From Eledone cirrhosa (taxonomy: Eukaryota): 64,000 nt of DNA. Numbering within the stretch: the stretch's first letter is position 1; the number at the start of each line of letters is the position of its first letter. The notes below the pieces were generated by a model that was not told the origin of the DNA, ran no database searches, and saw only the letters and a list, made by a program, of their open reading frames with translations. A program made the translations under genes and the position numbers. Below, piece by piece: positions 26,318 through 29,711 of the stretch. Location: positions 18,228,001-18,292,000 of the forward strand of contig OZ024756.1 in assembly GCA_964016885.1 (NCBI GenBank), in the 5' to 3' direction.

Positions 26318-26441
26318 CATCATCATATATATATATATAAATATATATATATTCCTGCAGCTCTCAAGAATTAGAAACTAGCCTCTGATTCTTTAAGAAT
26401 CATCCTTGCTGAAGCCTGGGATCCTCTACGAAAAGCTAATT

Positions 26442-26524
26442 ATGGCACTAATAATCCTTCTTGTGGTAATGACAATGATGATGGTGATTACGGCCGTGTC
26501 CATCTCAAATCATCTGGTCACCTG
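26442..26524 (+). CDS. Putative signal-peptide exon of a small secreted peptide (exon likely starts at 26361)
   Basis: attATGG start; encodes MALIILLVVMTMMMVITAVSISNHLVT-TG|gtaaaa; acceptor ttcctgcag at 26360. Confidence 0.5.
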
Positions 26525-26742
26525 GTAAAATCATTTTATGATTCTTTTAGATGTTTTGGTTTGTTTGTTTGTTTGTTTGTTTTTTAAACTTATTCATGTA
26601 TTAAATTATTCATGTATCAACATCATCATCTGACCTTCCTCCTCTCTCTCGTTCCCCCCCTCTCTCTATCTCTTTGGCCCTCCTTCTCTCTCTCCACCCC
26701 CCATCAAACAAACACCATCATCATCATCATCACCACGACCTT

Positions 26743-26811
<69 letters not shown>

Positions 26812-27822
26812 CCCCTTCTTTCACTTCTCTCTCTCTCCCTCTCTCCACCCCCACCACTATCACACCACCACCATCATCATCATCATCATCATCATCACCA
26901 CGGCCTTCCTCCTCTCTCCCTCTCTCTCTCTGATCCCCTTCTTTCACTTCTCTCTCTCTCCCTCTATCCCTCTCTCTCTCTCTCCCTCTCTCCTTCTCTC
27001 CACCCCCACCACTATCACACCACCACCATCATCATCATCATCACCACGGCCTCCTCTCTCTCTCTCTCTCTCTCTCTGATCCCCTTCTTTCACTTCTCCC
27101 TCTCTCCCTCTCTCCCTCTCTCCCTCTCTCCACCCCCACCACCACCACCACCACCATCATCATCATTGTCATCATCTTCTTCCTCCTTTCTCTTTCACTC
27201 CTGCTTTCTCTCAACCACCATCACCATAATCATCATCATCGGCAACTAAACCAGCCCCCTGCGGGATTAAAAACAAAACCCGTCAAAGGGCAGAGGAACT
27301 CAGGGGAGTCAACGGCCAATAAATTGTTTTCTTGGTTGTTTTTTTAGCAAGAGACTTCTAGTCTCCATTAAGACATTTCTCTGGGAGAAGGTCACTCTAA
27401 TATAAAACCTGCGACTTCGTTTACACCCAATGATGTAGACCAGCTCTTCTTTTTGCGTAAATGCATTCGATGTTCAGAGAGTGGGGTTGGCCCCGTGCAA
27501 AGCCTTCCTCACTTAAAAAAACATCAAGAACAAGGATCGCTTGATATGTGACATTTTTGTGCGATGCATGGTATTGCTGGTCATAGGCAAGTCCCTAGCA
27601 GGACTAAAAACCCACATCTGTGATGCTCAAGCGATGGCATTACCCGAAATCGAATTGCAGCCATCTTATGTACGTATGTATGTATTGGTCTATGTATATG
27701 CATGTATGTATGTGTGTGGTGTGTGTGTGTATATCTATATATGTGTGTGTATGTATGTATGTATTATGTATGTATGTATGTATGTATGTATGTATGTATG
27801 TATGCATGTATGTATGTGTGTG

Positions 27823-27903
<81 letters not shown>

Positions 27904-27944
27904 CCCTGCTAGCGTGGAAAAATGATGATGATGATAATATATCA

Positions 27945-28430
27945 TCATCATCATCATCATCGCCGCCGTTTTACGTTCATTTTTCCACACTAGCATGGGT
28001 TAGACGAGTTGTCCTGTTGTGGGCAATGCCAGGTCAGGTGACCATGTCTTGCTCATACAGAACTGATTTTGACTCGATTTCTACAGCTGGATGCCCTTCC
28101 TGACGCCAACCACATTAACTGTGTGTTGGATGCTTTTTGTCATGACACCTACACCACTACTTTACAGTGTGGGCTGGGTGCTTTTTGACGTGACACTTAA
28201 CGTGGGAGGGTGGGTGGTATTGGGTGGGGCCATACTGTATATATGTGCTTCAGCTTCGATCTGTGCTCATGGGAAGTTGGGTTTTCTGCATCACTGCGTA
28301 ACGCCAGAGATCTCGATCCTATGTCATCGCCTTTGAAAGGTGAAATTGGGCATTGTCAGCTTGTATTACCTCATCCCAAGCCTTCCTGAGTCTTCCCACT
28401 CCAAGGCTGCCATCGACTTTGAATGCTCTA
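27945..28430 (-). mobile_element. RTE LINE 3' end and UTR fragment
   Basis: DGSLGVGRLRKAWDEVI on the minus strand plus the shared RTE 3' UTR and (CAT)n tail. Confidence 0.8.
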
Positions 28431-28472
<42 letters not shown>

Positions 28473-28591
28473 AGAGGGAAAGATAAGTTAATAAATGTAA
28501 TGAGAGGAAGGTAAACTTGTGGAAATGAAATAAAGGAGAAAAGAGAAGACATTCCTTGTGTTATACTTATTTCACTTTTTACTGCTTTCAG

Positions 28592-28630
28592 TCCTTGTCC
28601 GACGACGGTGCATGGATTCGATCCTGACAG
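28592..28630 (+). CDS. Putative 39-nt microexon of the small peptide: (C)PCPTTVHGFDPD(S)
   Basis: Acceptor ttcactttttactgctttcag and donor CAG|gtttgt; GC-rich island in AT-rich DNA; symmetric phase 2-2. Confidence 0.5.
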
Positions 28631-29199
28631 GTTTGTATGCTCCTAATTTTATCGATCTTTACTTATTAAACTGTTTAATAAACCTACATACTTATCTCCC
28701 TTTGGTATGTATTGGATCTCTGTCGGTTAAGAGTGCTCCAGTCCAGTTGTATGAACCGTGTGTATATGTGTGTGTGAGAAAGAATGTGTGTGTATGCGTG
28801 AGTGCATGTCTGTGTGTGTGTGTCTGTGTGTGTCTGTTTGTGTGTGTTTGTCTGTGTGTGTCTGTCTGTGTGTGCCTGTTTGTGTGTGTTTGTCTGTGTG
28901 AGTGTGTGTGTGTGTATGTGTGTATGTATGTGTCTATGTCTGTCTGTGTGAGTGTATGTGTCTCTATGTGTGTATGCGTATGTGTATATATCAGTATGTG
29001 TATGTGTGTGTGAGTGCATGTCTGTGTATGTGAGTGACTGTATGTGCATGCTTGTATGTGTCTGTTTGTGTGAGTGTGAATATGTGTGTCTGTCTATGTA
29101 TGAGTGAGTGTGTGTCTTTATGTGTGTATGCATATGTGTATGTATGAGTGTATGTGTGAATATGAGTATGTGTGTGTGTATGGGTATGTATGTATGTAT

Positions 29200-29248
29200 G
29201 CGCTGCTGGTGCTGTTACTGTTGGTGCTGCTGCTGTTGGTGCTGCTGT

Positions 29249-29279
<31 letters not shown>

Positions 29280-29308
29280 TCTGCTGCTGCTGGTGCTGTT
29301 ACTGTTTC

Positions 29309-29340
<32 letters not shown>

Positions 29341-29519
29341 TTGTTGCTGTTGCTGTTTCTGCTGCTGTTGCTGTTTCTGCTGATGTTGGTGCTGCTGTTG
29401 TTGTTGCTGTTTCTGCTGCTGTTGCTGTTGCTGCTGTTGTTGCTGTTGTTGTGTTGCTGTTTCTGCTGCTGCTGCTGCTGTTGTTGCTGTTGTTGTGTTG
29501 CTGTTTCTGCTGCTGTTGC

Positions 29520-29563
<44 letters not shown>

Positions 29564-29632
29564 CTTCTGCTCCTGTTGCTGTTGCTGCTGTTGTTGCTGT
29601 TGTTGTTGTTGTTGTTGCTGTTGTTGTTGTTA
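29200..29632. repeat. Compound (GCT/GTT)n trinucleotide repeat
   Basis: Direct inspection; it ends ~40 nt upstream of the acceptor at 29671. Confidence 0.97.
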
Positions 29633-29671
29633 TTTGATTTTTTTTCTTGTTTTGTGTATTTTTGTTCTTAG

Positions 29672-29711
29672 CGTGTCTGTGCGGCGTCCCGCCTTCTGCG
29701 GTGGCTACTGA
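29672..29711 (+). CDS. Putative last coding exon of the small peptide: (S)VSVRRPAFCGGY*
   Basis: Long T-rich acceptor ttttgtgtatttttgttcttag; phase 2 matches the upstream microexon; AATAAA at 30295-30300. Confidence 0.5.

Follow-up and report, generated by a model that had tools for sequence, protein, structure and literature searches.

A putative three-exon 53-codon open frame upstream of Naa50 in Eledone cirrhosa is probably a by-product of a non-coding stretch

Introduction

Octopus transcriptomes contain thousands of putative long non-coding RNAs, which account for 12.1% of the O. vulgaris transcripts described in PMC9115989. Repeats make up 66% of the O. vulgaris genome according to the figure given in PMC13282606. 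For secreted proteins, an over-representation of phase 1 introns near signal cleavage sites is described in PMC1626468. The gadid antifreeze glycoprotein is a secreted protein that arose de novo; in the account of PMC6410882 its signal peptide came from fortuitous non-coding DNA and microsatellite-like triplets were involved.

The locus studied here lies in a stretch of 64,000 nucleotides of E. cirrhosa DNA (assembly GCA_964016885.1, contig OZ024756.1, positions 18,228,001 to 18,292,000), referred to as the window; all positions are those of the window. An initial annotation had proposed that three short exons on the forward strand join into the gene of a secreted, Cys-containing peptide of 53 residues. 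The analysis leads to another preference: a by-product of a non-coding stretch is more likely than a real peptide gene.

Results

Genomic setting

The window is dense in microsatellites and in SINE-like and LINE-like repeats. The candidate peptide locus is located 3-6 kb upstream of Naa50 and on the same strand. Two genes were recognised:

about 32631..54035, forward strand: Naa50 gene; a match to solved Naa50 was obtained with its exon 41360-41494 (E 7.6e-22)
59849-60262: histone H2A gene without introns, its product having SQEY as last residues; stem-loop-like sequence follows near 60311

The SQEY end of the H2A is presumably an H2A.X-like motif. The last exon of Naa50 encodes a C-terminal extension with a Gln run, and the promoter near 32400-32640 is CpG-rich. 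LINE reverse-transcriptase fragments and broken DNA-transposon remnants, the latter by their motifs presumably piggyBac-like and Tc1/mariner-like, were found at 38937-40265 (with a 442-codon frame at 38937), 10693-12330, 47156-48257 and 6315-7280. Tandem arrays occupy 14540-16620, 22907-23428, 23640-26070 and 63230-64000; they comprise a satellite of roughly 46 nt extending over 2 kb, a 47-nt array, a three-copy local duplication of about 600 nt with (ACAT)n and a minisatellite.

Structure and splice sites of the three-exon join

The proposed join uses the coding parts of three islands, which are followed by a SINE-like repeat:

26361..26524, forward strand: island C, proposed first coding exon with ATG at 26442, donor GT at 26525, phase 2
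28592..28630, forward strand: island D, internal exon candidate of 39 nt, open in phase 2 (the peptide frame) and in phase 1
29672..29890, forward strand: island E, terminal exon candidate; stop of the peptide frame at 29711, phase 1 open for 49 codons, phase 0 for 71 codons
29986..30270, forward strand: SINE-like interspersed repeat directly behind island E, with many copies in the window and a depth of about 10^5

The arithmetic of the join was confirmed. The segments 26442-26524, 28592-28630 and 29672-29711 on the forward strand add up to 162 nt (83 + 39 + 40) and give 53 codons free of stops; both introns are phase 2 with GT-AG ends and the frame closes with TGA, as the initial annotation had described. 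The translation has Cys at residues 28, 30 and 50 and an RR pair at 45-46, also in agreement with it. The description of the islands as non-repetitive was not wholly true, as codons 6-17 of island C are 67% identical to (ATG)n. Nor is the join unique, other equally legal joins being open as well.

Position 26442 is the first ATG after either of two upstream acceptors, the stretch 26272-26441 being free of ATG, and its context is good with A at -3 and G at +4. Splice sites were scored with a home-made weight matrix and ranked among the 3715 AG and 3969 GT dinucleotides, with the neighbouring Naa50 gene as control. The acceptors of D and E reached 5.5 and 4.0 (ranks 43 and 73 of 3715), whereas the three scored acceptors of Naa50 reached 11.0-12.8 (ranks 1, 2 and 4). 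The first donor, behind C, scored 1.3 (rank 229 of 3969) and the second 3.2, compared to 2.6-4.6 for the donors of Naa50. The acceptor at 26361 scored only 0.5, and a much stronger one with 10.3 is present at 26272. The acceptors at 28087 and 29985 are located in repeats. Overall, the splice sites of C, D and E look real but weaker than those of Naa50. Concerning the intron phase, intron 1 of the candidate is phase 2, unlike the phase 1 enriched near signal cleavage sites.

Base composition sets the islands apart. Island D has 56% GC and four CpG between AT-rich flanks of 30% and 25% GC; none of the other internal exon candidates, 20 in all over both strands of the window, reaches its GC contrast of 0.29, the two Naa50 exons listed having 0.12 and 0.16. 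D has the look of a genuine exon. In island E, GC amounts to 68% over the first 40 nt, and GC falls after the donor of island C. Island E is single copy, with a depth of 4-10 in the genomic runs X1 and X2 against 10^4-10^6 on repeats. Among the sequencing runs listed as containing this DNA, none was an RNA run. The three runs that cover 29632-33000 were taken as genomic DNA because their depth is even across intergenic sequence and no joint at the Naa50 donor is present among the matches listed. The first AATAAA behind island E is found at 30295.

Signal-like start and decayed triplet repeats

The N-terminus had been described as signal-like. Its core has a hydropathy of 3.07 and an A-V-S motif is present; the first five residues contain neither Lys nor Arg, and the core lies on a decayed repeat:

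26451..26498, forward strand: decayed (ATG/GAT)n tract; the ATG frame gives the Met-rich hydrophobic "signal" core, the GAT frame an Asp/Asn-rich run

Within this tract, 26463-26489 matches the opposite strand of (CAT)n tracts in intron 1 at 85-88%, and Met accounts for 5 of the first 16 residues. Read in the ATG frame, decayed tracts of this kind give Met/Val/Ile/Leu; read in the GAT frame, they give Asp/Gly/Asn. An 11-residue hydropathy of at least 2.5 was found in the ATG frame of 14 out of 26 decayed tracts in the window, for example 3.79 at 3852-3890, and the hydrophobic core of the 53-residue peptide lies at 2.9-3.07. In total, 40 signal-like ATG starts were counted in the window. In islands B and C (B is listed below) the middle T of the triplet is the best kept position (7, 2 and 9 mismatches), as hydrophobic coding would demand, and the control tract at 3852 behaves in the same way. 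Sequence identity thus shows the hydrophobic run of C to be of repeat origin, and a decayed ATG/GAT repeat offers a simple non-coding explanation of the signal-like stretch.

Other frames and islands in the same DNA

The putative C-D-E transcript holds four overlapping ATG frames of 56, 53, 52 and 46 codons, none of which is dominant. Further islands and frames can be combined with D and E or lie within E:

21971..22152, forward strand: island B, second exon-like island with acceptor, ATG at 22076, a hydrophobic run of 3.45 on a decayed tract within the island and a donor in phase 2 at 22153
17600..17823, forward strand: island A, 63% GC, 14 CpG, donor at 17824 with score 5.5 (rank 12 of 3969)
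29729..29887, forward strand: separate 52-codon ATG frame in island E, with a Met-rich hydrophobic start on another decayed tract and an Asp/Tyr-rich tail

With 22076-22152 of B as alternative leader, the B-D-E join gives 51 codons in the peptide frame (phase 2). The longest frame is obtained from A-D-E in phase 1, with 132 codons and an acidic tail of 62 residues.

The decayed tracts of islands B, C and E, at 22061, 26451 and 29753, share one frame and all begin 81-90 nt downstream of the acceptor. In the GAT frame a DG[DE]Y-like motif occurs in C and E, and in B together with a stop. An origin of B, C and E as duplicated exons was unsupported: DNA similarity is limited to the tract (scores attained by 3, 1 and 2 of 200 triplet shuffles), and the proteins read from C and E in the GAT frame fail to align (E 8.3). 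Recoding of the stop codon in the GAT frame by A-to-I editing was dropped, as it is incompatible with the phases of B, C and D. Two more islands were left unlinked. The one at 1530-1680 matches SINE copies; the one at 3518-3725 is non-repetitive and has a good acceptor (6.4), but is closed in all three frames and is possibly a non-coding or decayed exon.

Frequency of comparable models by chance

Alternative joins were counted with the weakest values of the model itself as thresholds. Starting from exon C, six open three-exon joins were found with introns of up to 3 kb and 20 with introns of up to 10 kb, all of them passing equal splice scores. The window was also shuffled in blocks of 250 nt, with islands B-E removed from the pool. 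A comparable model was present in 52 of 200 (3 kb) and 122 of 200 (10 kb) shuffled windows, and in 35 and 108 of 200, respectively, when at least two later Cys were demanded. When composition was shuffled, the D+E part kept an open frame in 57% of cases. Judged only by open frame, splice scores and hydrophobicity, the model does not exceed chance.

Stricter comparisons gave lower numbers. When the GC contrast of the middle exon was added, 9 and 30 of 300 shuffled windows held a model at a contrast of 0.10, 3 and 8 of 300 at 0.15 and 0 of 300 at 0.25. With D and E fixed, an equally hydrophobic in-frame leader appeared in 14 (3 kb) and 38 (10 kb) of 1000 shuffled upstream regions, or in 1 and 3 of 1000 if a good ATG context was required in addition; two leader donors were seen in 5 and 8 of 1000 shuffles (3 and 10 kb), and the real region has two leaders (B and C). 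With the GC contrast of D or the ATG context added, the model is uncommon in shuffles, which favours the peptide; these stricter criteria were chosen after the model had been seen, the pool was without the relevant tracts and the candidate had been picked from a very large scan.

Alleles

A single contig from a genomic run (depth 4.3) carries three substitutions, at 29699, 29752 and 29783. The one at 29699, in the codon of the third Cys, is the only allele in the proposed coding part and is synonymous in the peptide frame (n = 1; 0.33 by chance). The other two lie behind the stop of the peptide frame and are both synonymous in the 52-codon frame (about 0.29 each by chance), and all three alleles change a residue in the phase-1 frame. 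The allele evidence is slight, because chance alone would make 0.29-0.35 of transitions synonymous.

Database and literature searches

The initial annotation recognised no homologue. This stands for single-exon pieces, which served as queries in the protein searches: relatives were searched for and none was found. For the peptide frame of exon 1 no relative turned up, either in proteins 23-74 residues long or in 1.84 billion representatives; the phase-1 frame of E had none among longer proteins and no protein relative was found for island A. Pfam gave no family above cut-off for single exons, and a 24-nt pattern of exon D had no match in metagenome contigs. Since the exact sequence of the window's own histone H2A is absent from the protein collection, the coverage of E. 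cirrhosa there is doubtful and the blank protein searches weigh little. In 15000-34000, none of 33 Rfam matches reached the gathering score, most of them being located on microsatellites; no intronic snoRNA or miRNA at gathering score was found in this range, which speaks against a small-RNA host gene. The motifs FCGGY, HGFDPD and RRPAFC were absent from the literature searched, and the titles listed on octopus salivary peptidomes give nothing on this peptide.

Discussion

The locus is probably non-coding and the 53-codon frame likely its by-product. D and E would belong as exons to a spliced RNA that is non-coding and expressed at a low level, or else would be unused cryptic exons. Such an RNA would include at least one of A, B and C as an upstream exon, and its end would lie ahead of the Naa50 promoter, close to the SINE and to the AATAAA at 30295. 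The signal-like start would be supplied by the decayed ATG/GAT repeat, which reads as Met, Val, Ile and Leu. Many equally legal joins exist and none of the four C-D-E frames is dominant, but A-D-E gives 132 codons; the splicing of D and E, the non-coding status of the RNA and the absence of a functional peptide are what we infer. Several results stand against a mere by-product: D is the best of the 20 candidates by GC contrast, hydrophobic in-frame leaders are rare in shuffles with D and E fixed and yet the region has two, the only allele in the coding part is synonymous, and the blank protein searches are weak evidence.

The same results can be read in favour of a real, lineage-restricted precursor of 53 residues that would be secreted, a reading of the sequence which we consider doubtful. 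The frame is open between GT-AG ends and starts at the first ATG of its exon in good context, GC drops after the donor and GC contrast is strong at D and E; rarity in the stricter shuffles, the two in-frame leaders and the synonymous allele at the third Cys point in the same direction. Its proposed route is likewise tentative at best: the hydrophobic N-terminus would lead into the ER, and a cut around residue 18-20 would yield a product of about 33 residues. RR would be a possible convertase site. Through its odd Cys the product might form a disulfide-linked dimer or keep the C-terminal heptapeptide attached. B is a possible alternative to C as leader exon. Such a precursor is difficult to reconcile with the repeat-derived, Met-rich core (5 Met in 16) that has no Lys or Arg in its first five residues, with the weak first donor (1.3) and with intron 1 in phase 2 instead of the phase 1 reported as enriched near signal cleavage sites in PMC1626468. 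It also has no Gly for amidation and no relative, and FCGGY, HGFDPD and RRPAFC are absent from the literature searched.

D and E could also be coding in another frame or join, namely in phase 1 behind A (132 codons) or through the 52-codon frame inside E, which we regard as unlikely. Of the donors tested, that of A is the strongest (5.5, rank 12 of 3969); A is also rich in CpG and in this resembles a first exon, no other frame is as long as A-D-E, and two out of two alleles in the 52-codon frame are synonymous (about 0.29 each by chance). Against this, all three alleles, which come from one contig at depth 4.3, change a residue in phase 1, neither phase-1 E (among longer proteins) nor A has a relative, and a Pfam match is missing. 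Very unlikely is a young gene for a secreted peptide that took its signal peptide twice from a decayed (ATG)n microsatellite. It is equally improbable that B (22076-22152) and C (26442-26524) act as interchangeable, repeat-derived leaders spliced in phase 2 onto D/E. By analogy with the gadid antifreeze glycoprotein, a repeat-derived start would be compatible with function.

If the preferred by-product reading holds, it calls for little more than caution, as Met-rich "signal peptides" and short spliced frames would arise easily in genomes rich in GAT repeats. A real peptide would join the orphan secreted micropeptides that annotation has missed. Specialists of de novo gene birth would be interested only by the repeat-born version with two leaders; if it were true, GAT repeats scattered through a genome would keep supplying signal peptides ready for use by new secreted proteins.

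The product does not carry the marks of the classes proposed for it: it has no Gly amidation donor, and its Cys form a Cys-Pro-Cys pair and one lone Cys. Molluscan neuropeptide precursors resemble the candidate in the hydrophobic N-terminus and one dibasic site, here the RR at 45-46. They differ from it in that the 53-residue sequence of the candidate has no Gly before the basic site or at its end and no repeated peptide, and that the single-exon Pfam searches gave no match to a known family. With 53 residues, it is short for a molluscan neuropeptide precursor. Knottins, defensins and conotoxin-type precursors are alike in size, signal-like start, Cys and three short exons. However, the Cys of the candidate number three (28, 30 and 50 only), of which two form Cys-Pro-Cys, where disulfide-rich venom or antimicrobial peptides would be expected to have four to eight in an even framework of at least four; its predicted mature part is not strongly cationic and there is no Pfam match.

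The octopus long non-coding RNAs, as presented in PMC9115989, share with the locus short frames that have no relatives and repeat-rich DNA beside a coding gene; the locus described here was read from DNA alone. The gadid antifreeze glycoprotein offers a likeness for a signal peptide from non-coding DNA. There, according to PMC6410882, the repeat forms the mature protein and both origin and function are proven, whereas the repeat of the candidate would form the signal itself.
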